Source: a virus
Taxonomy: Duplodnaviria; Heunggongvirae; Uroviricota; Caudoviricetes
IMG/VR virus record: IMGVR_UViG_2541047897_000009
Strand: one strand, 5' to 3'
DNA: 19,720 bases
Positions 3,986 through 19,720 of this stretch are shown in pieces. Below the pieces are notes generated by a model. It saw only the letters and a list, made by a program, of their open reading frames with translations, made no database searches and was not told the origin of the DNA. The stretch's first letter is position 1, and every line of letters begins with the position of its first letter. The translations under genes were made by a program, and so were the position numbers.

Positions 3986-4478
3986 CCGCCCAGAAGAAGA
4001 TATTTTCACTGGCCGATATGTCGCCAAAATCCAGCAATATGACAGCAAAATCAGGCATTAATACAGCAGATGCAAGCAAAGTTTATCATTTGCTGGTGGT
4101 AGGAGCGGATGCCTTAACTATGTCAGAAATTACGGTCGATGGTGTTAGCGTTGAGAAGGTCAGCGGCTGCGCCAGAGAATTTCTGGTCGTAGATGGCTTT
4201 CTCTGCTCGCGTAGTGGCTCCACAAAAACCTTCGTCCACACGCGCGACGTTAACGAAATGAGCGCGATGTATTGTGCATCTGGTGCTTCCAATAGTGAGT
4301 TTTCGGAGTCCATAAAAAAGAGCTTGCCGTTATGCGGCAACACGGTTTATGGTTATAAGGCACCTCATAAAACGGGTGCCGGGATTGGCGTCCTGGTAAA
4401 TCGAATGGCGACATATGACGCGCCGAGCGTCTTTTTTTATGTCGTAGGTCTGACTCACCCATTTTTTGGGCGTTGGTG

Positions 4479-4490: not shown

Positions 4491-4640
4491 CCTTTGTCAA
4501 TCAATGGTGGCTCAGGCAGGGGCTTCTTCGGAAGCGCCGGTATCCATTCGAGCCGGTTACGCCAACCCTGTCTGGGCTACCACCAGCGAAATTGGCGTTT
4601 CCGGTGGTAGCGTTACATGCTATCGAATGGAGGCTGCCAC
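4491..4640 (+). ncRNA. Structured leader; possible P4 CI-like immunity RNA region with seqA/seqB-like repeats
   Basis: UUCG-tetraloop hairpin 4522-4535; 9-bp perfect stem GCTACCACC (4576-4584) / GGTGGTAGC (4603-4611); direct repeats ATGGTGGCT (4504-4512) and ATGGAGGCT (4627-4635), the latter overlapping the icd RBS. Confidence 0.3.
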
Positions 4641-7022: not shown

Positions 7023-9765
7023 TCTTATCCGTCAGGTTATCAGTGCGTCTGAAAACAACTGGCCTCATGTGCTGGGCTGCCTGAACATAAATGTCCCTGA
7101 CTCTCCGCGCCGTCATGCTCCCTGCCCTGCATGTGGGGGCAAAGATCGATTCCGGTTCGATGACAACGGGCGCGGTAGCTTCATCTGTAATCAGTGCGGC
7201 GCTGGTGATGGACTGGATTTAATTAAACGCGTAAATAACTGCGACACAACAGAGGCGGCGCTTCTTGCCGCTGATGTTCTGGGTATTGATTACCGGACAA
7301 CGGAAACACCAGAAGCCACCAGCCAGAAACGGGAACAACTGGAAACCGAGCGCCAGCGACGCGAACAGGAGCGCCTGAAAAGGGCAGAGAAGGACGAACA
7401 ACAAAGACGGGATACGTTTTCCCGTCAGTTTGATGACATGCGCAGAAAGGCTGTAAACGGCAAATCTGATTATCTGGTTGCGAAAGGGGTAGGTGATTTT
7501 ACATTCCCCGTGTTGCCCGATGGATCTCTGTTGCTGGCGCTGGTGGATAAATCCGGCGCAGTAACAGCAGCACAGACTATTACCTCACATGGTGAAAAAA
7601 GACTCCTGACAGGTTCAGCAAAGCGAGGGGCATATCACGCCATAAACGCACCAGAAACAACACAGAGCATCTTAATCGCAGAAGGGCTGGCAACGGCATT
7701 ATCTGCCCATTTAATTCGTCCAGAGGCGCTGACAGTGGCGGCGATTGATGCCGGGAACCTGTTATATGTCGCCCAGGTACTGCGGGATAAATTTCCTTCA
7801 GCACAAATCATCATTGCTGCGGATAACGACCACAGCGAAGGAAGACAAAACACGGGGAGAATAGCAGCAGAAAAAGCAGCTTTATCTGTTTCTGGATGGG
7901 TGGCATTACCCCCGACAGATCACAAAGCAGACTGGAATGATTACCACCAAAAACACGGCATTAAATGCGCCACAGAAGCGTTCAATAAGTCAATGTACCA
8001 ACCACAGGGTAATGGCGTGAAACAGGAGCCACAGACCATTGAGGGAAGCGATTTTAAGGTTATGGATACCGACCCACTGAAACCAAGAATAGAAAGCCGC
8101 GAGGATGGTATTTATTGGGTATCTCCGAGAGCTGACAGCCAGAGTGGAGAAATCATCAATAACGAAAGCTGGTTATGTTCTCCGTTAAGCGTTATCGGTA
8201 CTGGCAGAGACGATAAAGACCAGTATCTCATTCTTCGCTGGCTGTCGTTTGGTTCTGAAACGCCGACAACCGCTGCCATTCCACTGGCTGATATTGGTGA
8301 ACGTGAAGGATGGCGCACACTTAAAGCTGGTGGGGTAAATGTCACGACCAAAAGCAGCCTCAGAGCAATACTGGCAGACTGGCTACAACGCAGTGGCTCT
8401 CGTGAATTGTGGCGTGTTGCTCATGCCACTGGCTGGCAATGCGGAGCGTACATCATGCCTGATGGGGAAATCATCGGAACACCTGAAAATCCTGTGCTGT
8501 TCAGCGGGAGAAGCTCAGCCGCAGCCGGATATACCGTCTCAGGGAGCGCGAAAAGCTGGCGTGATAACGTGGCGCGTCTGGCCTTTGGTAACTATTCAAT
8601 GATGACCGGGATCGGCGCAGCACTGGCAGCGCCATTGATTGGGCTGGTGGGCGCTGACGGGTTCGGCATTCATTTCTATGAGCAGTCGAGCGCAGGTAAG
8701 ACCACCACGGCAAACGTGGCGAGCAGCTTATACGGCAACCCTGATTTACTGCGGCTGACGTGGTACGGAACCGCGCTGGGGCTGGCAAATGAAGCTGCCG
8801 CCCACAATGACGGACTAATGCCGCTTGATGAAGTTGGTCAGGGCGCTGATCCTGTCAGTGTTTCACAGTCTGCCTATGCGTTATTTAACGGTGTAGGGAA
8901 ACTGCAAGGCGCTAAAGATGGTGGAAACCGGGATCTAAAACGCTGGCGTACAGTGGCAATCAGCACCGGAGAAATGGATTTAGAAACATTTATCGCTACT
9001 TCCGGGCGAAAAACCAAAGCCGGGCAACTGGTGCGACTGCTGAATATTCCGTTGAGTAAAGCAGTACGCTTTCACGATTACCAGAACGGAAAACAGCACG
9101 CAGACGCACTGAAAGACGCTTACCAGCATCACCACGGCGCGTCCGGGCGTGAGTGGATTAAATGGCTGGCAGACCACCAGCAACAGGCTATTAAAACTGT
9201 TCGTGATTGCGAAAGCAGATGGAGAAGCCTGATCCCATCCGATTATGGTGAGCAGGTTCACCGTGTAGCCGCGCGATTTGCCATTCTGGAGGCCGCATTG
9301 TTGTTAGGCGAGGTTGTAACAGGCTGGGATGCTCAGACATGCCGTGATGCGATACAGCACAGCTATAACGCATGGTTGCGCGAGTTCGGCACAGGTAACA
9401 AAGAGCATCAGCAGATTATTGAACAAACGGAGGCATTTCTTAATGCCTATGGGCTTAGCCGTTTTGCACCATTTCCATACAGCCCGGCAGATTTGCCCAT
9501 CAAAGATTTAGCCGGATACCGTCAGCGTGGAGAACATGACGAAAGTCCAATGATTTTCTACACATTCCCGGCCACATTTGAAAAGGAGATCGCATGTGGT
9601 TTCAACGCAAAACAGTTTGCTGAAGTGTTGAAAAAAGCCGGGATGCTAACCCCACCAAACAGCGGTCGTGGATACCAAAGAAAATCACCACGTATTCAGG
9701 GACGACAAATAAACGTTTATGTACTCAATTACCAGCCAGGAGATTACAACTCATCTGAAGAATGA
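7009..9765 (+). CDS. Bifunctional primase-helicase, P4 alpha type (zinc-ribbon primase + Toprim + C-terminal NTPase)
   Basis: CPACGG...CNQCG zinc ribbon; Toprim-like ILIAEGLATALS ... IIIAADNDH; Walker-A-like SSAGKTT; 919-aa ORF (GTG 7006 / ATG 7009). Confidence 0.9.
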   Translation: MRNIDLIRQVISASENNWPHVLGCLNINVPDSPRRHAPCPACGGKDRFRFDDNGRGSFICNQCGAGDGLDLIKRVNNCDTTEAALLAADVLGIDYRTTETPEATSQKREQLETERQRREQERLKRAEKDEQQRRDTFSRQFDDMRRKAVNGKSDYLVAKGVGDFTFPVLPDGSLLLALVDKSGAVTAAQTITSHGEKRLLTGSAKRGAYHAINAPETTQSILIAEGLATALSAHLIRPEALTVAAIDAGNLLYVAQVLRDKFPSAQIIIAADNDHSEGRQNTGRIAAEKAALSVSGWVALPPTDHKADWNDYHQKHGIKCATEAFNKSMYQPQGNGVKQEPQTIEGSDFKVMDTDPLKPRIESREDGIYWVSPRADSQSGEIINNESWLCSPLSVIGTGRDDKDQYLILRWLSFGSETPTTAAIPLADIGEREGWRTLKAGGVNVTTKSSLRAILADWLQRSGSRELWRVAHATGWQCGAYIMPDGEIIGTPENPVLFSGRSSAAAGYTVSGSAKSWRDNVARLAFGNYSMMTGIGAALAAPLIGLVGADGFGIHFYEQSSAGKTTTANVASSLYGNPDLLRLTWYGTALGLANEAAAHNDGLMPLDEVGQGADPVSVSQSAYALFNGVGKLQGAKDGGNRDLKRWRTVAISTGEMDLETFIATSGRKTKAGQLVRLLNIPLSKAVRFHDYQNGKQHADALKDAYQHHHGASGREWIKWLADHQQQAIKTVRDCESRWRSLIPSDYGEQVHRVAARFAILEAALLLGEVVTGWDAQTCRDAIQHSYNAWLREFGTGNKEHQQIIEQTEAFLNAYGLSRFAPFPYSPADLPIKDLAGYRQRGEHDESPMIFYTFPATFEKEIACGFNAKQFAEVLKKAGMLTPPNSGRGYQRKSPRIQGRQINVYVLNYQPGDYNSSEE

Positions 9766-9780
9766 GCTTCTTCATGTGCG

Positions 9781-9912
9781 TAGAAAAGGTGTTGGTTCAG
9801 TTGGTTCAGTTGGTTCAGTTGGTTCAATTTGTAAAGAGTATTGTTTTATAAGTATTTTATTCTTTTTATTGAACCAACACTGAACCAACAACACGGTATT
9901 TTGAACCAACAC
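9781..9912. repeat. Iteron block A (ori-like): 4 tandem GTTGGTTCA, AT-rich spacer, 3 inverted TGAACCAAC
   Basis: Direct copies at 9781, 9790, 9799, 9808; inverted copies at 9870, 9881, 9902; immediately downstream of the primase gene. Confidence 0.8.
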
Positions 9913-9960
9913 AATGTGACTGAATTGATGCGCACAACACCTGGCTGGCATCAGAGAGTG

Positions 9961-10035
9961 TTTTACGAGACTTTCGTAAAATCCTGTGTACAAGGGCGTG
10001 ACGTTTTTGAAAGTGAGCACTACGAAATTTTCGTA
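9961..10035. promoter_or_regulatory. Pair of palindromic operator-like sites sharing half-site TTTCGTA
   Basis: TTTTACGAGACTTTCGTAAAA (9961-9981) and perfect palindrome TACGAAATTTTCGTA (10021-10035), centres about 57 bp apart. Confidence 0.4.
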
Positions 10036-10230
10036 GTTCAAAAAACAGCCTCTGAGAAGTTGTTATGCCTGTTCAGCAAACCATCCGCATAGCTGATCGC
10101 GAATCAAATTACCAATGGAGCCAGAAGCAAGGGCAGAACTGAAAAGCGCCTGCCGTGAAGAGTAATGCGACACCATAAATATAGTTTTTAGAGTCCATAA
10201 AAAACCTGTCAAAACCTGACACACAGAACG

Positions 10231-10263
10231 ATGCCACCAGCTACTGAGCGGTGGCATTTTTTT
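10231..10263 (+). terminator. Rho-independent terminator
   Basis: 8-bp GC-rich stem ATGCCACC / GGTGGCAT with 11-nt loop, followed by 7 T residues. Confidence 0.65.
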
Positions 10264-10358
10264 GTGCTATTTGTTTCATATTTTGCAATTACTATGATGA
10301 ATATTGCGATTTGTGAAACTATAATAACTGTTGTTTTATACAGTTCTAAGGGGGCGTT

Positions 10359-10520
10359 ATGGCTATTTCAGTAAAGCCGGTATTGATAAGTGAGAAGCAA
10401 ATGGAAGCGATAAAGAAAATTCAGGAAGAGCAGCGTAAAAAATCAGGAATTGGAGTAGCGCCAACTCTGCATGAAATTGCACGAGGGTTAATAGATAAGG
10501 CGCTGGCAGGCTGTATGTGA
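10359..10520 (+). CDS. Small protein (53 aa), possible ribbon-helix-helix DNA-binding regulator
   Basis: Below the 60-aa ORF-track cutoff; strong RBS AAGGGGG 5 nt before ATG; predicted strand-helix-helix pattern. Confidence 0.5.
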   Translation: MAISVKPVLISEKQMEAIKKIQEEQRKKSGIGVAPTLHEIARGLIDKALAGCM

Positions 10521-10536
10521 AAATGGATGGCATCGC

Positions 10537-10998
10537 ATGGAACTAAAATTTATTGATAACCCTGTGCGATTACAGGCCTTTCTTAACGAGCCAGGCAATA
10601 CCGAAAATATTGTTGAGCCGGGGCACACGTACTACATCAAGCCTGATGCGGTATATCTCGGCATCTACGAAGGATTGGTGCTGGCTGGCGTTCATGAAGT
10701 GCGTAACTTCTGGCATAGCATTGTTGAATGCCATGCGGTGTACGCCCCCGGATTCCGTGGTGAATATGCACTGCAAGGGCATCGATTATTCTGCAAGTGG
10801 CTTCTCGAAAACTCACCATTCCTTAACAGCATTACCATGGTTCCTGACACCACGAAATACGGACGGGCAATTATCCGTTTGCTTGGCGCTACCCGTGTTG
10901 GTCACCTTGATGATGCTTATATCAGATGTGGTAAACCCGTCGGCGTAACGCTTTATCAGTTAACTCGGCAACAATATAAGGAATTCAGCGAATGTTAA
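10537..10998 (+). CDS. Hypothetical protein (153 aa); first gene of a coupled 4-gene operon, possibly a virion/ejection-protein assembly factor (P22 gp14-like by position only)
   Basis: Clean ORF; downstream gene start overlaps its stop (ATGTTAA). Confidence 0.65.
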   Translation: MELKFIDNPVRLQAFLNEPGNTENIVEPGHTYYIKPDAVYLGIYEGLVLAGVHEVRNFWHSIVECHAVYAPGFRGEYALQGHRLFCKWLLENSPFLNSITMVPDTTKYGRAIIRLLGATRVGHLDDAYIRCGKPVGVTLYQLTRQQYKEFSEC

Positions 10999-11669
10999 TT
11001 ACCCACATAGCTCATAAACATCTCAATCGTGCCGTATACGAAAAAGGCGGTGATGGTGGTGCCTCTAAAGCTCAGGCGAAGGCCCAGCAGCAGGCAATTG
11101 ATTTGCAGCGCGAGCAGTGGAATACGGTGATGAATAATCTCAAGCCGTATGCAGAAGTCGGATTGCCTGCTTTACAACAACTACAAGGACTGATGACTCT
11201 GGAAGGGCAGAATAAAGCCGCGAATGATTTCTTTGGTTCTGGTTTATATAAAACACAGGCAGATCAGGCCCGTTATCAGAACCTTGTCTCAGCAGAAGCT
11301 ACCGGGGGGCTTGGCTCAACAGCTACCAGTAACCAGTTATCTTCCATTGCGCCCATGCTTTATAACAATTGGCTTAGTGGGCAAATGCAAAATTATGGAA
11401 ACCTGCTAAATGTCGGGATGAATGCGGCATCAGGGCAGGCAACAGCAGGGCAAAACTACGCCAATAATACCGGGCAACTCTTGCAGGGGCTTGGCGCTAT
11501 TCGTGCAGGTCAGGCGCAGCAGCCATCCAGTCTTGCGCGTGGTATTGGTGGGGCGGCATCAGGCGCTTTAGCGGGTGCGCAACTTGGTTCCGTTGTTCCG
11601 GGTATAGGTAATGTCGCCGGGGCTATTGGTGGTGGGCTTATTGGTCTTGTTGGGGGGCTTGGATTCTAA
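10992..11669 (+). CDS. Putative virion internal / DNA-ejection protein (225 aa; P22 gp7-like by size, order and composition)
   Basis: AAGGAA RBS; Q/A-rich; glycine-zipper hydrophobic C-terminus (GIGNVAGAIGGGLIGLVGGLGF). Confidence 0.7.
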   Translation: MLITHIAHKHLNRAVYEKGGDGGASKAQAKAQQQAIDLQREQWNTVMNNLKPYAEVGLPALQQLQGLMTLEGQNKAANDFFGSGLYKTQADQARYQNLVSAEATGGLGSTATSNQLSSIAPMLYNNWLSGQMQNYGNLLNVGMNAASGQATAGQNYANNTGQLLQGLGAIRAGQAQQPSSLARGIGGAASGALAGAQLGSVVPGIGNVAGAIGGGLIGLVGGLGF

Positions 11670-13090
11670 TGGCGACATGGCAACTTGGCGGGCTGCCTAG
11701 CATGGCACCGCAAAATGATAATGCTCCTCGTTCTTCCGTTCCTCAGCCTGTGCAGTATCAGCAGCAGCCAAACGTAGGTTTAATGGCGCTACAGGGGCTA
11801 AGAGGCGTTGCTGAGATTAATCAGCAGGCACGTCAACAACAGCGTAAAGCAGAGTTTCAGAAAGCATATGCCGGGGCTTTTGAGTCTGGAGACAGAAACA
11901 AAATGCGCAGTCTTATTTCTGAGTATCCAGAAGAATTTGAAAGCGTTCAGAAAGGGATGGGCTTTATTGATGACGACCAGAGAAATTCTATTGGTCATCT
12001 TGCGACTAGTGCTCAAATCGCATCTTCGCTCGGAACTGGGGCATTTGGAAAATTCATAGCAGATAACGAAGATGAAATGCGTCGCTTGGGAATTTCTCCT
12101 GAGTCTGTTGCCGAAATGCATGTTAATGATCCACAGGGATTCCAGCGGCTTGCTGGTAGTATGGCACTGTTTTCTCTCGGTCATGAGAAGTATTTCGATA
12201 TCAAAGATCAAATGGAAGGTCGGGATATTGAGCGTGGCAAGTTGGCAGAAACAATCCGCAGCAATCAGGCTGGCGAAGCACTTCAGGCGAGAGGGCAGGA
12301 TATTAGCCGAGCAAATGCGTTAACGTCAGCATATGCACCAACAGCAGCAATGCAGAATTACAATCAGTACGCTCAAATGTTAAAGGAGGATCCAGAGGGG
12401 GCGGCGGCATTTGCGGCAGCGGCTGGAATTAATACAAACGCCAAAAAATTAATGAGTGTTAGAGAAAACGATGATGGCACTGTCACAAAATACTACACAG
12501 ACGGAAGTGAAGAGCAGGGAAAACTAAACCAGCCAATATCTGGAGATGGGTTTCGTCCAATAGCTTTGCCAACAGCCCAAAAGATCATGGAAAAGTCGCC
12601 AGAAGGGGCTAAAAAAGCTGCTGGATTTGCATACAGAGTTAGGGATGCTCTTGATTCAATGGATACACTGAAAGGCCAGCTTAGCCCACAGCGAGTGGCG
12701 ATCATTAATAATGCTTTGGGTAATGGGACGCTGGCTAACTTAACGCTCAGCCCAACAGAGCAGCAATACGTTGTTAATGCTAATGACGCAATAATGGCAA
12801 TACTCCGTCAGGAAACAGGGGCAGCTATCGTACCTGCTGAAATGTCAAAATATTATCAAATGTATTTCCCTCAGCCTGGCGACTCCACAAAAACCATTGA
12901 TACCAAGCGCCGGAAGATGGAAAACCAGTTCAATTCGCTGAAAGCTGCTTCTGGTCGAGCTTATGATGCTTTGCGGGTTATTTCAGCAGTTGACAGAGGG
13001 ACTTCTTCTTCGTCGCAGACATTGCCGCAATCTGAGCAGGTATCACAGCCAGCAGCCAGCAGTAACTTTTCTTCACTATGGGGTGATTAA
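11669..13090 (+). CDS. Putative DNA-ejection / internal virion protein (473 aa; P22 gp20-like by size and order)
   Basis: TAATG overlap with upstream gene; low-complexity Q/A/S-rich termini. Confidence 0.7.
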   Translation: MATWQLGGLPSMAPQNDNAPRSSVPQPVQYQQQPNVGLMALQGLRGVAEINQQARQQQRKAEFQKAYAGAFESGDRNKMRSLISEYPEEFESVQKGMGFIDDDQRNSIGHLATSAQIASSLGTGAFGKFIADNEDEMRRLGISPESVAEMHVNDPQGFQRLAGSMALFSLGHEKYFDIKDQMEGRDIERGKLAETIRSNQAGEALQARGQDISRANALTSAYAPTAAMQNYNQYAQMLKEDPEGAAAFAAAAGINTNAKKLMSVRENDDGTVTKYYTDGSEEQGKLNQPISGDGFRPIALPTAQKIMEKSPEGAKKAAGFAYRVRDALDSMDTLKGQLSPQRVAIINNALGNGTLANLTLSPTEQQYVVNANDAIMAILRQETGAAIVPAEMSKYYQMYFPQPGDSTKTIDTKRRKMENQFNSLKAASGRAYDALRVISAVDRGTSSSSQTLPQSEQVSQPAASSNFSSLWGD

Positions 13091-15195
13091 TGGCTAAAGC
13101 ATGGAAAGATGTTATCGCCTCTCCACAGTATCAGGCGTTAGCACCAGAACAAAAAGCGCAGGCTCAGGAGCAATACTTCAATGAAGTCGTTGCCCCGCAA
13201 GCCGGAGAAAGTGTAGCGCAGGCTAAGCAGGCTTTTTATGCTGCCTATCCACTACCATCAACGAATGAAATAGACCGATCCCAATCAGCAACTCAAAATA
13301 TTCAACATACATCATCTGATAATTCTCTTGCGTCAGGGTATGCAAAGTTAGCTACTCAGCAAAGAGAGGGGCTTGAGCGTTCAGCAGAACAGGGAGCCAG
13401 CCTTGGGGCTGCGATGCGCGATGCTATAACAGGCGAAAGCCGAATGACTCCAGAGATGGCGAGACTGCAAAATGTCGACCTTGCCCCAGAGTTAACCTCA
13501 CTCAGTATGGATGCTCTAAAAGCTCGATGGTCTCAACTTTTCGGCTCTGACGCATCTCAGGAAAAGATTCTTCAGAGCATGGGAGCGAAATTAAGGCAGG
13601 ATGAGAAGGGTAACACTATCGTTTCCCTGCCATCCGGTGATTATGCTCTGAACAAGCCGGGTTTATCGCCGCAAGACGTGGCATCGTTTCTGGCTAATGC
13701 GCTGGCGTTTACACCAGCGGGCAGGGCCGGAACGGTGCTGGGGGCCATAGGGAAATCAGCAGCTACAGATTTAGCACTACAGGGAGCCACCAGCCTTGCT
13801 GGTGGAGAAGATATTGATCCGTTACAAACGGTAATTTCTGCTGGCATTGGCGGCATTGGTAAGGGGCTGGAGAATACAGCGAGTGCGGTTTCGAGGGCTG
13901 TTCGTGGTGATATGGCACCGGAAGCGAAAGCCGCTGTTGATTTTGCATCGGAAAGAAACCTGCCGTTAATGACCAGTGACGTACTGAAAGATAAAAACAC
14001 TGTGCAGAGTCTGGCCCAGAAAACAGGCGAAAAAATCCCTTTTTTTGGAACGGGTACGAACAGGTTGAATCAACAACAGGCACGGGAAAATCTGGTCAGA
14101 ACATATAACGATGGTCTGGGAGGCATTTCAGATAAACAGCTTTATGAATCTGCGACTAAAGGGCAGCAAAAATTCATTGAGGCCGCAGGAAAGCGATATA
14201 ACCGCATAATTGACGCTATGGGGGATACCCCTGTCGATCTCTCAAACACGGTAAAAGCTATCGACAATCAGATTGCCGTGTTAAGCCGCCCGGGCAAATC
14301 TCAGGATAGAGCCGCGGTAAAAGTCTTGCAGCAATTTAAAGACGATATCACCAGCGGACCAAATGACCTGCGTCTGGCGAGAGAAAACAGAACTGACCTT
14401 CGAAAGCGGTTCATGAATTCAAACGAGACAGTTGATAAAGACACGCTCCAGAAAGCCAGCGATATTGTCTACAAGGCATATACGCTGGATATGAGAAGGG
14501 CAGTAGCCCAGAAACTGGGTTCAGAAGAAGCAGCCAATATGGCAAGGGTCGATCGCTCATGGTCTAAATTCAATGACATGATGGGAAGAACGCGCGTTCA
14601 GAAGGCAATAGCCAGCGGCAAGGCCACGCCTGAGGATGTAACAAAACTCGTTTTTAGCCAAAGCTCATCAGAACGTTCTCAGCTTTACAGGCTTCTGGAT
14701 GACAACGGCAGGCAGAACGCACGGGCAGCCATAATACAGAATGCTGTAGATAAGGCGACTGATTCGGCGGGGAATATCAGCGTTGAGAAGTTTATTAACA
14801 CGCTACACCGGAACAGAAAGCAATCCGCAACGTTCTTTAAGGGCGTGCACGGAAAGGAACTGGACGGCATTATTAAATACCTCAACGATACCAGACAGGC
14901 GGCAAAGGTTGACGGTCAGAAATTAAACAGCCAGAAACTTTATGGCCTGCTGGTTGGTGGAGGCGCTATAAATGCGGCAGTTCTGGCGGGGATGCTGAAA
15001 ACGGCTGCGTTTGTTGTTCCTGCTGCTGGTGCCGTAGGCGGAGCAGCGAAGGCATACGAAAGCCCTGTTATACGAAATGCCTTGTTACGTCTGGCAAATA
15101 CGCCAAAAGGTAGCACAGCATATGACAGAGCGATCAGTACGGTCACACAATCACTGACCACAGCAGCACAAGCATCGCAAAAGGAAGCTCAATAA
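13090..15195 (+). CDS. Putative DNA-ejection / internal virion protein (701 aa; P22 gp16-like by position)
   Basis: TAATG overlap with upstream gene; A/Q/G-rich; hydrophobic glycine-rich segment near C-terminus (GLLVGGGAINAAVLAGMLKTAAFVVPAAGAVGGAA). Confidence 0.7.
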   Translation: MAKAWKDVIASPQYQALAPEQKAQAQEQYFNEVVAPQAGESVAQAKQAFYAAYPLPSTNEIDRSQSATQNIQHTSSDNSLASGYAKLATQQREGLERSAEQGASLGAAMRDAITGESRMTPEMARLQNVDLAPELTSLSMDALKARWSQLFGSDASQEKILQSMGAKLRQDEKGNTIVSLPSGDYALNKPGLSPQDVASFLANALAFTPAGRAGTVLGAIGKSAATDLALQGATSLAGGEDIDPLQTVISAGIGGIGKGLENTASAVSRAVRGDMAPEAKAAVDFASERNLPLMTSDVLKDKNTVQSLAQKTGEKIPFFGTGTNRLNQQQARENLVRTYNDGLGGISDKQLYESATKGQQKFIEAAGKRYNRIIDAMGDTPVDLSNTVKAIDNQIAVLSRPGKSQDRAAVKVLQQFKDDITSGPNDLRLARENRTDLRKRFMNSNETVDKDTLQKASDIVYKAYTLDMRRAVAQKLGSEEAANMARVDRSWSKFNDMMGRTRVQKAIASGKATPEDVTKLVFSQSSSERSQLYRLLDDNGRQNARAAIIQNAVDKATDSAGNISVEKFINTLHRNRKQSATFFKGVHGKELDGIIKYLNDTRQAAKVDGQKLNSQKLYGLLVGGGAINAAVLAGMLKTAAFVVPAAGAVGGAAKAYESPVIRNALLRLANTPKGSTAYDRAISTVTQSLTTAAQASQKEAQ

Positions 15196-15257
15196 CAGAT
15201 GGCCATGGATGGTTGGTTATAATAGTAATTAGTATTTTTTTCAAATAGTTATGAACA

Positions 15258-15656
15258 TTAACACTTGCCTTTAACATTGCCGACAAATGAGCCTGTAAAT
15301 GAGCCTATATCAGATCGACTAATTGTTCGTGTATGGATCACTTTTCCGTCATTTGAGATTGCCCATGTGACAAGCGTCAGTTGACCATCTCGATAGCTTC
15401 TTCCCATCATGGCATTCGGAGACAGCGGGTAATAATCAATACCTCCACCTATACCATCTTTTGCCAAGATAAGATCCGCCTTCTCTTTACTTATTACCAA
15501 ATGAAAGGTATCTGGTATAGATGATAACTTATAGTTATACCCATCTGAACTTGAGGCTTCTTGTCCTTTCAGATCACCAATAATCCAGCATTCAGCGTTC
15601 GCTCCAAAAGAAGCAAATAATAAACCGGAGACAACCAATCGCTTCAATTGATTCAC
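15258..15656 (-). CDS. Small secreted (periplasmic) protein, about 132-aa precursor, unknown function
   Basis: Near-perfect RBS AAGGGAGGG 5 nt before a GTG start; N-terminal signal peptide (M)NQLKRLVVSGLLFASFGANA with cleavage after ANA; Cys at both ends of the mature protein; convergent with the ejection-like operon. Confidence 0.6.
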   Translation of the reverse strand: MNQLKRLVVSGLLFASFGANAECWIIGDLKGQEASSSDGYNYKLSSIPDTFHLVISKEKADLILAKDGIGGGIDYYPLSPNAMMGRSYRDGQLTLVTWAISNDGKVIHTRTISRSDIGSFTGSFVGNVKGKC

Positions 15657-15768
15657 ACCAACCCTCCCTTTAGCGTTGTTTAGAATGGCAATCATCATAT
15701 ATCCAAGACATGGCATTTGGTACATAGCTTGGGTCGGGATTTCAAATCCGCCCCCGTTGATGGGGTCG

Positions 15769-16136
15769 TTACAGTACGCGCATATCCGCTTTATGTGAAA
15801 CAGGAAGATTTTTCTGATATCACTGCCACAGCAAAACACCAATTTCGTGACCAGTACGCGCGCGAGGGGTATCAGTTGCAAAAAGTTTTGCAACTACGTC
15901 CGACCAGTACGCGCACGATGGAGGGGAGTACCATAAAACTGTTCTCTACATAAGTCAGAGTGGTGGTGATGTGTTGATTATCGGCGTATATGCGCACAGG
16001 ACGCGCTATGACGATGTTTTATGCGGGTACACCAATCACATGATAAATCGCGTTACATGACCTCTCATGTTGTGCTGGTGGTTATCACGACGTTCTGAAT
16101 CTGGCCTTTGCCTGGTATTTTGCGACAAGTACGCGC
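15769..16136 (+). promoter_or_regulatory. Array of four direct repeats (core CAGTACGCGC) with an embedded 18-bp palindrome
   Basis: TTACAGTACGCGC 15769-15781; GACCAGTACGCGC 15849-15861 and 15902-15914 (identical); GACAAGTACGCGC 16124-16136; palindrome TTGCAAAAAGTTTTGCAA 15876-15893 between copies 2 and 3. Confidence 0.45.
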
Positions 16137-16344
16137 GCGTAGCATCGAAATAATCGGATGGCGTATGCTGCTGGTAATATGAAGACCGATAGCATTAACC
16201 GAAAGGAGAAAGACTTCTCGATAACGGCAAGGGGGCTGAATTGCGAGGCGAGATTAAGCAACTGTCTTGAACGTAAAAATCATGGAGCAACATGATGGTA
16301 CGATTCATTCCATTCTTCGTTCTTTCTGAGCATTGCGTTCAGGC

Positions 16345-16680
16345 TTAGTCAAAATTAGTGTTGCGAGCGGACCTATTAGTAATTGTTGGTGCGATGCGCC
16401 TGTTATGGATTGTTATGGTTGTGGCAGGCCTGATTAATATCCAGTATGACCACCAGCTATGAGAGGCCACCTCAGTGGTTCGCAGTTGCAGGTTTGCACT
16501 CAGGTTCGCAGGGTTTTGGCTACTTTCACGTGCGAACCTGCAGAATTGCAAAGGACAACTAAGTCCTCTGGCCAACTCCCGGTTTATGAGCGACACAGTC
16601 CGCCTGGCGCGTCGTTTTCGTCGAGTGCGCCCATCAGCTTGTCCATGGACTATCCACCACTCGATATTAAAGCTAATCAT
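16345..16680 (-). CDS. Dubious ORF (111 aa) translationally coupled to alpA2; possibly a decayed gene or non-coding structured region
   Basis: ATGA overlap with alpA2 stop, but the protein is W/R-rich and unprotein-like; two + strand frames are also open across the same stretch. Confidence 0.2.
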   Translation of the reverse strand: MISFNIEWWIVHGQADGRTRRKRRARRTVSLINRELARGLSCPLQFCRFARESSQNPANLSANLQLRTTEVASHSWWSYWILIRPATTITIHNRRIAPTITNRSARNTNFD

Positions 16681-16862
16681 TGGTTGCCAGCCCGCGAATC
16701 AAGTTTGTTCTGGATCCAAGCTTCAACCTCCTCAAGCGACCATCTAGCTGATCTACCAATTTTAACTGGCTGTGGAAACGTGCCCGTCTTAACCCATGAG
16801 TAGATTGCCGTTTTCTTGAAGCCCGTTCTGAGCATGACTTCGCTTAATTTGATAAGGCGCAT
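16677..16862 (-). CDS. alpA: AlpA-family HTH regulator (second copy, diverged)
   Basis: 61 aa; LRTGFKKTAIYSWVKTGTFPQPVKIGRSARWSLEEVEAWI; GAGGAG RBS. Confidence 0.85.
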   Translation of the reverse strand: MRLIKLSEVMLRTGFKKTAIYSWVKTGTFPQPVKIGRSARWSLEEVEAWIQNKLDSRAGNQ

Positions 16863-17114
16863 AGAGGCTCCTCTGCTTTAGATTAAGCATAGTGACAATC
16901 TGGCTTCGGGCGGTATCCAAAAGCGAGGTATCCATGTTGGTATCCACCAAAACGCTGTTTACCAAAAAAGTTACCACCGGAACAGGACATTTTGAGCTGT
17001 AACTTAACACATAGCATATGGAGTTCACGCATAGACTTCACGCACAACGGCTCCGGCCAGTGAAGAATCACCCTGGCTGGCAATATAATGCCGATCACCA
17101 TCAGAGGGGAATCC

Positions 17115-17306
17115 ATGACACCACGAGAAATCGAGCTGCTGACCATTGCCAAGCTGGAGCATGACGGCCACCAGCTCAGCCCGGCAGAACTGTGGGAATT
17201 AAGGCGCCAGCTGGCAGAGGGCCCTGTAATAGCCAGGCGGTACCGCGAAATGATGACCAGCCCCGCATATCGCTGGAGCAAACCAGCGCCGCTCCGTGCG
17301 CGGTGA
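17115..17306 (+). CDS. Hypothetical small protein (63 aa), divergent from alpA2
   Basis: AGAGGGG RBS; internal ATG 17115 preferred over 17088; TATAAT at 17084-17089 upstream. Confidence 0.45.
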   Translation: MTPREIELLTIAKLEHDGHQLSPAELWELRRQLAEGPVIARRYREMMTSPAYRWSKPAPLRAR

Positions 17307-17378
17307 GCAGCACCTAACCAGCACTAGACAAGCCCTGTGCTGGTGGATGTCCCTCATAATTAGCGGTTTTTAAACGGC

Positions 17379-17503
17379 GTGTTGGTTCACGGCCTCTTTT
17401 TGTTGGTTCAAAAATGGGGTGTGTTGGTTCACTTTTTGCGAATAATCCTTTTAAAAACAATACTCTTTACAAATTAAACCAACTGAACCAACTGAACCAA
17501 CAC
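17379..17503. repeat. Iteron block B (crr-like): inverted copy of block A
   Basis: GTTGGTTCA at 17381, 17402, 17423; spacer AACAATACTCTTTACAAAT is the reverse complement of the block-A spacer; (T/A)GAACCAAC at 17475, 17484, 17493. Confidence 0.8.
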
Positions 17504-17537
17504 CTTTTTGCTTATCTATATAGTCTGAGAGGCAGAA

Positions 17538-17825
17538 ATGATAAGGGACAGGAAAGCTGAAGAGCTGGAGTCAAAAGGGCTATGCCGGAGAGCTGCCACA
17601 CGATGGGCAGAAGTCATGACGCTGGCAGATGGCGATAAAGAACGTGAACATGCAGCAAACAGACGCTCTGAATGTATCCGTAGGGCGGCACGCCCACCAG
17701 CAACTACAGACAGATTCGGAGATTTAAGACAGGCAGTTAAGCGAACTCATTCGGCTCTTGGTATGGATGAGGAAGCGAGAGGGTACTTCAGGCGTTATCG
17801 CGATAGAGATTGCCAGAGACAGTAA
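17538..17825 (+). CDS. PerC-family transcriptional regulator-like protein (95 aa)
   Basis: AEELESKGLCRRAATRWAEVM resembles the conserved PerC/Pch N-terminal motif (from memory); GAGAGG RBS. Confidence 0.65.
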   Translation: MIRDRKAEELESKGLCRRAATRWAEVMTLADGDKEREHAANRRSECIRRAARPPATTDRFGDLRQAVKRTHSALGMDEEARGYFRRYRDRDCQRQ

Positions 17826-18236
17826 TGCTCTCTCTGTTTTGGCAAATTACCCCTCACTTTGAAGGGATCGGAGCTATAAAAATGGTTTTAGGTACATTCC
17901 TCAAATTGAGGATTGTGGAAAAACCAATGGGTTAGGCTTTTCCCCCAATGGGGGTTTTCGAAAGAATCAATGGGTTAGGTCATCGTGCAAATTTGCACTC
18001 TGCCAGCCAACGCAATTTTTCGTTGGCGGAAATATCAGGTATTTACTGAACGAACGGTCTGCCCGTCTGTTCAGTTACCAGTTTCACATGGCTGTTTTAT
18101 GTGAGGCCGGAAGGTTTTTCGGACATCACTATTGGGTACAGCAATTTCGCGAGCAATACGCACGCGTAACAAATATGCCTAGCATCTTAGCTATGTGCTG
18201 ACAAATTGCGATACTTCCCATCCTGTATTGTGTTTG

Positions 18237-18698
18237 TCACCAGTGCCTTAGAGTTTCATAATTCATAACTGCTATGGCGATCTCCAGCTTAGTCGTTTCA
18301 AGTATTTCTTCACATAAGACCAGATCATGAATGATGTTTTTGAGTAGCTCCTTATCGATTGCTCCATCAGCCACCCAAACTGCGATGTTTTCCATTTCTC
18401 GCACAAAAAGTTGTACACAATGGCCAAAGCCATTTATCTCAAGAAAGTATGTTGAAAGGGCGATGCTTGATCTTTTATTTCCGTCACTAAAAGCATGGAA
18501 TTTATTGATTGCAAAGAACAAGTGACTTAGTTTGTCTACAAATCCTGGGTAATACCAGTCGTTTTGGATATGCTCAAGGGCACTCGCCAGTACCCCTTGG
18601 TCTCTGATTCCGTGTAAGCCGCCCGTTTTCTCAATGATCCAATCATGAACCCTAATGGCGTGTTCAATATCAAAATAATTGAATTGTATATCGTCCAT
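18237..18698 (-). CDS. Fic/Doc-family protein (death-on-curing-like toxin; 153 aa)
   Basis: Fic/Doc core motif HAFSDGNKRSS (H-x-F-x-D-G-N-K-R); GGGGG RBS 5 nt upstream; 8 bp downstream of partner gene on the same strand. Confidence 0.85.
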   Translation of the reverse strand: MDDIQFNYFDIEHAIRVHDWIIEKTGGLHGIRDQGVLASALEHIQNDWYYPGFVDKLSHLFFAINKFHAFSDGNKRSSIALSTYFLEINGFGHCVQLFVREMENIAVWVADGAIDKELLKNIIHDLVLCEEILETTKLEIAIAVMNYETLRHW

Positions 18699-18706
18699 TT
18701 ATACCC

Positions 18707-19720
18707 CTATCGGTCTTTTAGTCTTTTGAACACTTCTAGGGTTTCTGGGTCGTTCAGGCGCTCTTCAAGTGATTTACTTTTCTCACCCAAGAAACGTTCA
18801 AAGTCCCCTTCAGGTACAGCTCTTACGTAAGCTTCAAGTTTTTCATGCAGCGCATCTCTGAAACAGAGATCCCTACTTGCCATTTTGGTTCTGGCATCTA
18901 GCATCATAGGCTTAAACAATGGATGAGATTCAAATTGTTTAAAAATAGCTTCTGCTTCCTGTTGTGTCAGTTTTCTGCCTAAACGAGAGAATTCTTGTTT
19001 TAATTCATGTGCAATACCTGATTCGAAACCTGCAATAAGAGTTAGAGCTTCGGAGTACATTGTGTCCCGGATTTTCTCTTTTTGAGCAAGATTCAATACC
19101 TTGCGGTACTCGGCCGCGTCTTCGTGGAAAATACTTTGATACACAAGGTTGGTAAACCTTGCATACTTCCAATTATTCCCTTCGACGCATTCATCTAAGG
19201 CATCAGTGAATTGCTTGCGATAGCTTTCTTCTTGAAAAGAAGCCAATAGGTAATTCTCATCACGTTGGTTGATGTACTTGGTATGTCCACCAGCCCTTTC
19301 GGCTAAAGTATCAATGACAATATCAAGCAGGCGCGTACGTATAATCTTGGCTTGCTCACTTTCGACCAGTAGCATGGCGAAGTTCAGGACAGCTCGGTAA
19401 TTAAACACTCCAATAGTAGGAGCCTTGTTACCCTCATTGATGAAGGAGACATGCTCTAACCCTTTGAATTCTTTTAGCTCTCTCCCTTTTATAAGTCGAT
19501 AACCATTGCTCTTGAGTTCATTGCTATGATTGGCGATATACCGTTCCACAGTGGCATCGCTTATACCAAAAATTTCCATAAGTTGACTTTTTGTAAAAAG
19601 TCGTTCTCCATTGAACTCAACTCCACCAAGAGCAAGATGTTTTTCAGCTTGTCGGAGTGCATAGGAGTTGTTCAGAATATTTTGTCTGTCATGAGCGGAG
19701 GTTGTTAAATCTTTAGCCAT
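18707..19720 (-). CDS. RhuM/DinD-like protein (337 aa), upstream partner of the Doc-like gene; start coincides with the window edge
   Basis: AT-rich ORF; overall pattern resembles RhuM-family proteins that commonly pair with Fic/Doc genes (from memory, unverified); stop TAG 8 nt before Doc ATG. Confidence 0.6.
   Translation of the reverse strand: MAKDLTTSAHDRQNILNNSYALRQAEKHLALGGVEFNGERLFTKSQLMEIFGISDATVERYIANHSNELKSNGYRLIKGRELKEFKGLEHVSFINEGNKAPTIGVFNYRAVLNFAMLLVESEQAKIIRTRLLDIVIDTLAERAGGHTKYINQRDENYLLASFQEESYRKQFTDALDECVEGNNWKYARFTNLVYQSIFHEDAAEYRKVLNLAQKEKIRDTMYSEALTLIAGFESGIAHELKQEFSRLGRKLTQQEAEAIFKQFESHPLFKPMMLDARTKMASRDLCFRDALHEKLEAYVRAVPEGDFERFLGEKSKSLEERLNDPETLEVFKRLKDR

Follow-up and report, generated by a model that had tools for sequence, protein, structure and literature searches.

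Mirror-image iteron blocks about 7.5 kb apart as likely units of one replication origin in a PICI-type satellite island

Why would a small satellite carry the same iteron array twice, in mirror image and several kilobases apart? The question is raised by a stretch of 19,720 nucleotides from a tailed-phage record (IMG/VR IMGVR_UViG_2541047897_000009; "the window" below means this whole stretch), which is one ~20-kb satellite island of the phage-inducible chromosomal island (PICI) type lying between yicC and dinD. An initial annotation, made from the sequence alone, had recognized two inverted iteron blocks in it, A and B, and had read A as an ori and B as a crr in the manner of the satellite P4. 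Our analysis points to a different answer: the two blocks are probably the mirror-image units of the replication origin of a single PICI-type satellite, and both would be bound by the satellite's own Rep, the primase-helicase Pri-Rep.

Anatomy and iteron specificity of the two blocks

Both blocks lie where they were first placed, with slightly refined homology edges, and the original description of block A as four tandem copies of the 9-base repeat GTTGGTTCA, a spacer and three inverted copies is correct (Table 1). Exact iterons in A begin at 9791, 9800, 9809 and 9818 on the plus strand and at 9870, 9881 and 9902 on the minus strand. Block B had been called an inverted copy of A; its layout is indeed the mirror image, but it carries three plus three iterons and has only 21 nt of spacer in common with A. 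Exact iterons in B begin at 17381, 17402 and 17423 (plus) and at 17484 and 17493 (minus), and the third tandem iteron, at 17475 (minus), is GTTGGTTTA, with one mismatch to GTTGGTTCA. Exact GTTGGTTCA sites number 14, far more than expected by chance. When up to one mismatch was allowed, the window held 19 matches, compared with 4.5 ± 2.2 in 200 dinucleotide-preserving shuffles of the window, none of which (0/200) reached 19.

Comparing the window with itself for repeats confirmed the mirror arrangement: a 48-nt inverted repeat, 98% complementary, joins 9800-9847 to 17454-17501, and weaker inverted-repeat arms also cover the dispersed iterons of A and B. The homology between the blocks ends sharply at 9784/9912 and 17379/17508, and only the iteron unit is repeated rather than any larger segment. 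The spacers are 43 nt each and AT-rich (86% AT in A and 77% in B, against 53% for the window); 21 nt of them, ATTTGTAAAGAGTATTGTTTT, are common to both units, and the remainder has diverged yet stayed AT-rich. The dispersed iterons are spaced at 11/21 bp in A and at 21/21 bp in B. Unit A begins its first iteron 25 nt past the pri-rep stop codon, and the outer flank of unit B is kept after the tandem iterons in relatives that have other iterons and other downstream genes. Folding of the blocks as single strands gave strong hairpins (z = -7.6 for A), a signal that adds nothing because it merely restates the convergent iterons. A search for sigma-70 promoters around each block was negative, and a role of the blocks as promoters or operators had no sequence support beyond the conserved TATATAG-like flank.

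The two blocks are iteron arrays of one specificity and are tied to the primase-helicase, as the initial annotation had supposed. Besides GTTGGTTCA, the family has seven iteron sequences, and whichever of them an element carries is present in both of its units; the lineage variants include TGTTGTCTC, ACGGGTTAY, GTCGGTTCA, CTTATCCCA, GTGGGTTAT and GGTCGGGTA. To follow these variants in the protein, we aligned 41 full-length primases and scored positions that are fixed in GTTGGTTCA elements and differently fixed in a variant group. Between TGTTGTCTC and GTTGGTTCA primases, 5/5 separating positions fall at aa 891-896 (RKSP.I -> GRV-.E), and for the ACGGGTTAY group 6/6 lie within aa 841-903 of 918. 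This co-variation suggests that iteron specificity resides in a small number of residues near the C-terminus of Rep. The rest of the protein is composite. Residues 7-361 share 33% identity with P4 alpha (E = 2e-41), with no alignment past residue ~361, and residues 402-813 match SaPIbov1 Rep (PDB 8tch_A, E = 1.4e-11), from a Staphylococcus aureus pathogenicity island (SaPI). Likeness to alpha is confined to the N-terminal primase domain; the helicase is of the DUF927, SaPIbov1-Rep-like type.

A natural swap in a sister island separates the two parts of this protein. The island of enterotoxigenic Escherichia coli (ETEC) H10407 (L002) matches the window up to 8015, differs over 8016-9956 and matches again from 9957. 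The swapped piece comprises a DUF5906 helicase with its C-terminus, followed by its own ACCTRTACCA iterons, and the N-terminal primase domain is retained. The resulting Pri-Rep (L002 7535-11217) is chimeric, with an N-terminal primase domain 85% identical to that of the window. Because these parts were replaced jointly, specificity appears to travel with the helicase and C-terminal part together with unit A. The ACCTRTACCA iterons form two clusters (L002 9913-10016 and 11023-11119), ~1 kb apart and with two small open reading frames (ORFs) between them. The H10407 island therefore resembles the window in its backbone, its N-terminal primase domain and its possession of two clusters of its own iteron, but differs in the helicase and C-terminal domain, in the iteron itself, and in an additional, non-cognate GTTGGTTCA unit B next to perC.

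Arrangement of the origin units in relatives

A survey of related genomes had been proposed along with the initial annotation, and when run it showed that the DNA between the blocks is absent or different in relatives. We fetched 77 loci encoding relatives of the primase, one genome per species, and analysed 57. Both units are adjacent, within ~300-470 bp after the primase, in 31/57 loci. The second unit lies 1.1-9 kb downstream in 10/57, a split arrangement found in Lonsdalea, Chimaeribacter, Rosenbergiella, Pantoea, Serratia, Leclercia, Cedecea and Erwinia. Only A is present in the DNA available for the other 16/57, 11 of which include the full 10 kb downstream. The first half of the adjacent form consists of tandem iterons, an AT-rich spacer and dispersed iterons, then ~35 bp including CTGGCTGG; the second half consists of dispersed iterons, a spacer and tandem iterons in the opposite sense, then ACCTTTTTGCTTATATATAG. 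IMG/VR contigs contained ~26 adjacent double arrays and four loci with split pairs 7.3-10.3 kb apart, and in another four contigs the two arrays belong to separate loci. The outer tandem arrays in these contigs always run plus, then minus.

The window itself becomes collinear with contiguous origins elsewhere once 9953-17378 is removed in silico: the pieces 9766-9952 and 17379-17535, once joined, align over their full length with the origins of L025 (79%), L037 (80%), L051 (75%) and L047 (75%). Two Lonsdalea britannica elements provide a comparable pair within one species: the only difference between them is the DNA from where A stops to the tandem array of B, 5.86 kb long in L014 and 118 bp in L047, with one breakpoint exactly at the end of A and the other inside the tandem iterons of B. 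A neighbour-joining tree built from the primases has adjacent-type elements on its deep branches; split elements turn up in at least five clades that are separate from one another, and every one of these clades has neighbours of the adjacent type. Together, the family-wide adjacency, the collinearity, the Lonsdalea pair and the tree indicate that the pair in the window is the split version of a double origin. In most relatives a single ~300-bp double origin lies directly after pri-rep; in the E. coli lineage and, independently, in several other genera, recombination at the iteron arrays would have inserted accessory genes (1-10 kb) between its two halves.

The copy number of origin parts also varies in this family (L035, L063, L083, L101, L122 and L129). 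In L035, from Yersinia pekkanenii, a stretch of 6 kb contains three copies of the double origin, and an HNH endonuclease is also present; the tandem array of L063 comprises seven iterons, and arrays of at least six occur in several IMG/VR contigs.

These data bear directly on the idea that B is the origin of a second satellite, independent or degenerate, that was inserted alongside in inverted orientation. A truncated AlpA-like gene does lie close to B, and several islands of this family are often found in one E. coli genome. However, the island has a single integrase, a single pri-rep and a single att pair, with one member at each end of the 20 kb; neither another integrase nor another primase or att site lies near B, where the right-hand ORFs are perC, Doc and a helix-turn-helix (HTH) regulator. 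Moreover, B is contiguous with A in 31/57 relatives and collinear with such origins once the insert is removed. The initial annotation had named an independent neighbour with B as its ori as the case that would overturn its view, and no such neighbour was seen; we consider a second satellite very improbable.

The 48-nt, 98% inverted repeat around the ~7.5-kb segment could likewise suggest a segment that flips as a switch, or a cassette with transposon-like ends. Inversion was not observed: a synthetic inversion junction had no match with at least 80% coverage in complete E. coli genomes, where 506 records matched one half only (including ~48 with the same inner flank), and the cargo has the same orientation in 12/12 split loci examined. 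The segment has no recombinase or transposase in or next to it, and the repeats are the iteron arrays common to the whole family. We therefore regard a switch or cassette as extremely improbable.

The picture of blocks that bracket a cargo needs a similar adjustment. The enclosed DNA is absent or different in relatives, but it is not a cassette defined by the blocks, because adjacent-type relatives have perC, the small ORF and similar homologous genes downstream of both units. In L014, L020 and L027, perC follows A and not B. The genes enclosed in the window encode P22-type ejection proteins, and other split loci have tape-measure, SLT or baseplate-spike proteins instead.

The genes at the equivalent place are tape-measure (TMP_3), SLT-domain or gpV-like baseplate genes in L014, L020, L022, L027, L036, L056 and L061. 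The satellite family seems to bring its own helper-matched DNA-delivery proteins; a search for literature on satellites with ejection or tape-measure genes gave no relevant description in searchable papers. In most split relatives, a minus-strand gene of ~147 aa and unknown function adjoins the inner side of B (L003 16435-16878, minus; also L002, L020, L022, L027, L061 and L062), often preceded by GTAAGACA repeats. The window lacks this gene and has the truncated AlpA-like gene in its place.

Possible roles of unit B

Given a split double origin, what does the distal unit do? Across at least nine genera, 13 B units and 12 A units share one common architecture. The iterons are better conserved than the columns between them in both units (99% vs 63% in A, 11 elements; 93% vs 74% in B, 12 elements), and the spacer motif AAAACAA...CTTTACAAAT is retained in both. 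The unit-specific spacings of 11/21 and 21/21 are kept, which argues that A and B are old paralogues under constraint rather than recent copies.

We propose that Pri-Rep would recognize the GTTGGTTCA iterons via its extreme C-terminal domain, melt the AT-rich spacer and load its own helicase. Unit A would serve as the primase-proximal origin. For unit B the likeliest role is that of a further site of initiation, or else of a Rep-binding site that acts in cis by forming a loop with A, comparable to that of crr with ori in P4. In either case B is probably an auxiliary initiation or cis-acting site, although Rep binding, firing at B and an interaction between A and B are steps that we infer from the sequence.

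Several observations weigh against this proposal. B is not universally required, as no second unit occurs in the available DNA of 16/57 relatives and the 11 A-only loci with the full 10 kb downstream lack it throughout. B is also somewhat weaker than A in its iteron columns (93% vs 99%) and spacer AT content (77% vs 86%), and it has one degenerate tandem iteron. The H10407 island keeps a nearly intact GTTGGTTCA unit B beside perC even though its Rep has another specificity, so B can persist, at least for a time, without a cognate Rep, and part of B also survives in a degraded, primase-less O111 island. On the protein side, AlphaFold2 models of the Rep C-terminus had a mean pLDDT (predicted local distance difference test score) of only 37.5 from the single sequence and 56.5 from a 45-sequence alignment, and Foldseek against PDB returned nothing significant (best relevant match E = 0.5). 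A profile search of the same region against PDB sequences was likewise without a significant match. With models of low confidence and no significant structural match, the assignment of a winged helix to the Rep C-terminus stays putative.

The dispensability of B in many relatives would also fit an element that titrates or responds to Rep for control rather than initiating replication, either by handcuffing with A to limit copy number or as an operator or activator for perC outside and the minus-strand gene inside. Iteron plasmids use extra iteron sets for control. B always lies between divergent genes, with the plus-strand gene starting 30-60 bp past the conserved ACCTTTTTGCTTATATATAG flank, and in six relatives the ~147-aa minus-strand gene abuts its inner side. 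Yet B retains a full origin layout, including convergent iterons and an AT-rich 43-nt spacer with AAAACAA...CTTTACAAAT; no sigma-70-like promoter was detected in or beside it, and the gene outside it varies between elements. We consider a pure control element unlikely, though it deserves to be taken seriously.

The position of homology breakpoints raises a further possibility. Breakpoints fall at block edges at 9957, at 17379/17401 (in hundreds of E. coli records) and in the L014/L047 pair, which makes it evident that modules are exchanged by crossing over at the iteron arrays. If the arrays of B did no more than this, B would be a non-functional leftover, a second copy carried as a slowly decaying module boundary. 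The orphan B units of H10407 and of the primase-less O111 island, the 16/57 relatives with A alone and the slightly lower conservation of B would all be understandable on these terms. What is not expected of a dead copy is that both units change iteron together in seven lineages, or that a B-type architecture with its own 21/21 spacing is kept across at least nine genera, with iteron columns at 93% vs 74% between iterons. A decaying leftover is therefore distinctly unlikely, and an auxiliary origin unit remains our preferred reading of B.

The O111 island (L143, E. coli O111 RM9322, 7194-11215) carries an IS1203 insertion, an acquired methyltransferase and an HNH endonuclease in addition to lacking a primase. 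Its perC, part of B and AlpA-like gene lie opposite to int, which reflects a larger rearrangement associated with the insertion sequence (IS) and not an inversion between A and B.

If B is an origin unit, its separation from A might be functional and not merely tolerated, although we consider this improbable. The mirrored origins would bracket a helper-type DNA-delivery module, with forks from A (rightward) and B (leftward) running co-directionally with the two convergent gene sets. The ejection segment would then be over-replicated first, even before excision, for a boost in dosage, and the conserved iteron arrays would act as crossover points for swapping the delivery module to match new helpers.

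Comparison with known replicons and island context

Published PICI and SaPI origins consist of two iteron sets in opposite orientation around an AT-rich region, just 3' of pri-rep, and the C-terminal winged-helix domain of Rep binds these iterons (PMC6092414, PMC9371898). Rep-dependent, ori-dependent replication has been shown for EcCICFT073 (PMC6092414). The window shares this position and layout, with unit A directly 3' of pri-rep and opposed iterons around an AT-rich spacer in both units; unit B lies 7.6 kb from pri-rep here but comes directly after A in the 31/57 adjacent-type relatives. Given the published layout and a first iteron 25 nt after the primase stop, block A alone is an ordinary PICI origin. 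The likeness to EcCICFT073, SaPIbov1, SaPI1 and SaPI5 extends to int, alpA, rightward transcription and the order of pri-rep then ori, as well as to a helicase core homologous to SaPIbov1 Rep and a probable seat of specificity at the Rep C-terminus. What differs is that the origin here is mirror-duplicated, with units ~7.5 kb apart and genes between them. We found no description of a second or distal origin unit in PICIs or SaPIs in searchable papers, and a full-text literature search for the iteron string returned unrelated papers only.

The comparison with P4 stands in one respect, namely that there are two sites with the same iteron for one primase-helicase, and fails in layout, iteron and helicase. 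In the P4 record, crr consists of two direct 120-bp repeats immediately 3' of alpha, with ori 4.7 kb away, and each crr repeat contains tandem iterons, an AT-rich spacer and inverted iterons. Like the window, P4 is a small satellite with two same-repeat iteron sites kilobases apart, one of them directly 3' of a fused primase-helicase gene; its crr units have the same internal order as the units here, and the N-terminal primase domains are homologous. However, the crr units are direct whereas those in the window are inverted copies, the P4 ori has a different layout, and the P4 iteron is of the TGTTCACC type. The helicase and DNA-binding parts of alpha do not align with Pri-Rep, and the gene content of the window lacks sid, psu and delta. 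In position, the A-B pair corresponds to P4 crr and not to ori plus crr, and the assignment of A as ori and B as crr was not borne out, because A and B together are the double unit normally found 3' of the primase. By analogy, the element is one that would work like a PICI replicon with a P4-like two-site twist, and not a member of the P4 system, the analogy with P4 being functional only.

Iteron plasmids with auxiliary sets, such as P1 with incA or R6K with its multiple origins, have several clusters per initiator, and the distal clusters modulate or provide initiation. They differ from the element described here in that they use another initiator family, whereas the window is an integrated satellite whose units are full mirror copies including the AT-rich spacer.

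Satellites of the PICI type are widely involved in transferring genes and interfering with phages, and their replicons are treated as a simple pri-rep plus one ori. In this large enterobacterial family the origin is instead a mirror-duplicated double unit, and its halves can be pulled kilobases apart, as has apparently happened several times independently. Why a small replicon should need two iteron sites has long been a puzzle for ori and crr of P4, and the present system is a relative in which the question is tractable. For annotation, an iteron block that stands alone, at a distance from any primase, should not be named as a separate element.

The island as a whole is organized like other Gram-negative PICIs, with int, alpA and unidirectional genes, att-flanked and ~10-20 kb long. 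The window is 99.8% identical to the chromosomal island of E. coli strain P4 (yicC-dinD) and 96.8% identical to the copy in E. coli 042, and at least 80% of it is present in 37 complete genomes. An imperfect 23-nt direct repeat, GTGTACATArrGGTGTACATAAT, occurs at both ends of the whole ~20 kb. Genomes with yicC beside dinD (the empty site) exist; a synthetic empty-site query was 74% covered, which confirms the insertion between these two genes but leaves the exact island ends approximate. The left gene order is integrase, alpA, antA, an ash/icd-like region, small ORFs, pri-rep and block A. Block A is followed by a plus-strand set (a small ORF and the ejection genes) and a minus-strand set (a hypothetical gene and a truncated alpA-like gene), and then by block B, perC, and a Doc toxin with an HTH partner (Table 1). 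Many adjacent-type relatives also have perC after the double origin, and some Gram-negative PICIs encode PerC (PMC6092414).

Table 1. Coordinates of Pri-Rep, the two origin units and the neighbouring genes in the window
Feature	Position	Strand	Remarks
Pri-Rep, 918 aa	7009-9765	+	Zn-ribbon primase, Toprim, DUF927 helicase and C-terminal domain; Pfam PF08273, PF13362, PF06048
Pri-Rep C-terminal ~78 residues (aa 841-918), putative iteron-recognition region	9529-9762	+	key residues 891-896 = nt 9679-9696
Block A (likely origin unit 1)	9784-9912		tandem iterons 9791-9826, AT-rich spacer 9827-9869, inverted dispersed iterons 9870-9910
CTGGCTGG motif	9941-9948	+	between both origin units in relatives; here at the end of the unit-A module
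Intervening segment, ~7.4 kb	9953-17378		two convergent gene sets; Pfam, PHROG matches, RefSeq annotation of strain P4 locus
Small ORF	10359-10520	+	
DUF2824 (gp14-like)	10537-10998	+	
P22 gp7-like	10992-11669	+	
gp20-like	11669-13090	+	
gp16-like	13090-15195	+	
Hypothetical gene	15258-15698	-	
Truncated AlpA-like gene	16677-16835	-	0.5 kb from B, reads away from B
Block B (likely origin unit 2, mirror of A)	17379-17508		dispersed iterons 17381-17431, AT-rich spacer 17432-17474, tandem inverted iterons 17475-17501
Conserved outer flank of unit B, ACCTTTTTGCTTATCTATATAG	17502-17525	+	followed by the next plus-strand gene
perC-family gene	17538-17825	+	directly outside unit B; Pfam PF06069, E = 5.7e-31

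Several further features of the island were recorded. The DNA separating block A from the ejection operon contains a hairpin with a T-run that resembles a terminator (10240-10255, plus) and is kept in the sister islands L002 and L003. This conserved hairpin suggests that the pri-rep transcript ends there and that the ejection genes are under their own control. Just downstream of antA, and within the ORF annotated as an ash family protein, Rfam identified isrK (67 bits, 4360-4437) and C4 antisense RNA (79.5 bits, 4500-4587), on the plus strand. The region looks like an RNA immunity module of the P1 immI / P4 CI type in a PICI-like island.

There are 19 copies of the Chi sequence GCTGGTGG in the 19.7 kb, where shuffling predicts 0.63 (highest shuffle 4), or ~1/kb on both strands. 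Examples on the plus strand are at 610, 1200, 4092, 7539, 8326, 8643, 13798, 16074 and 17339, with 10 more on the minus strand. This excess may give protection from RecBCD to a satellite whose replicating DNA is linear or concatemeric.

At the right end, 18237-19720 (minus) carries a Doc/Fic-family toxin gene preceded by a 337-aa HTH-containing protein, which is not a typical small Phd antitoxin. Sister islands such as L003 lack this module and end with perC before dinD. Around block B, ATTTYGYGACMAGTACGCGCGCG is repeated four times in non-coding DNA (15842-15864, 15902-15921, 16117-16143 and 18144-18166), and the same GACAAGTACGCGCGCG motif adjoins block B, just to its left, in the Serratia fonticola element L062; these motifs may be binding sites of another regulator. 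Finally, just downstream of perC, 17897-17979 contains two tandem 40-nt units, each with a small hairpin (TTCCTCAAATTGAGGA / TTCCCCCAATGGGGG).

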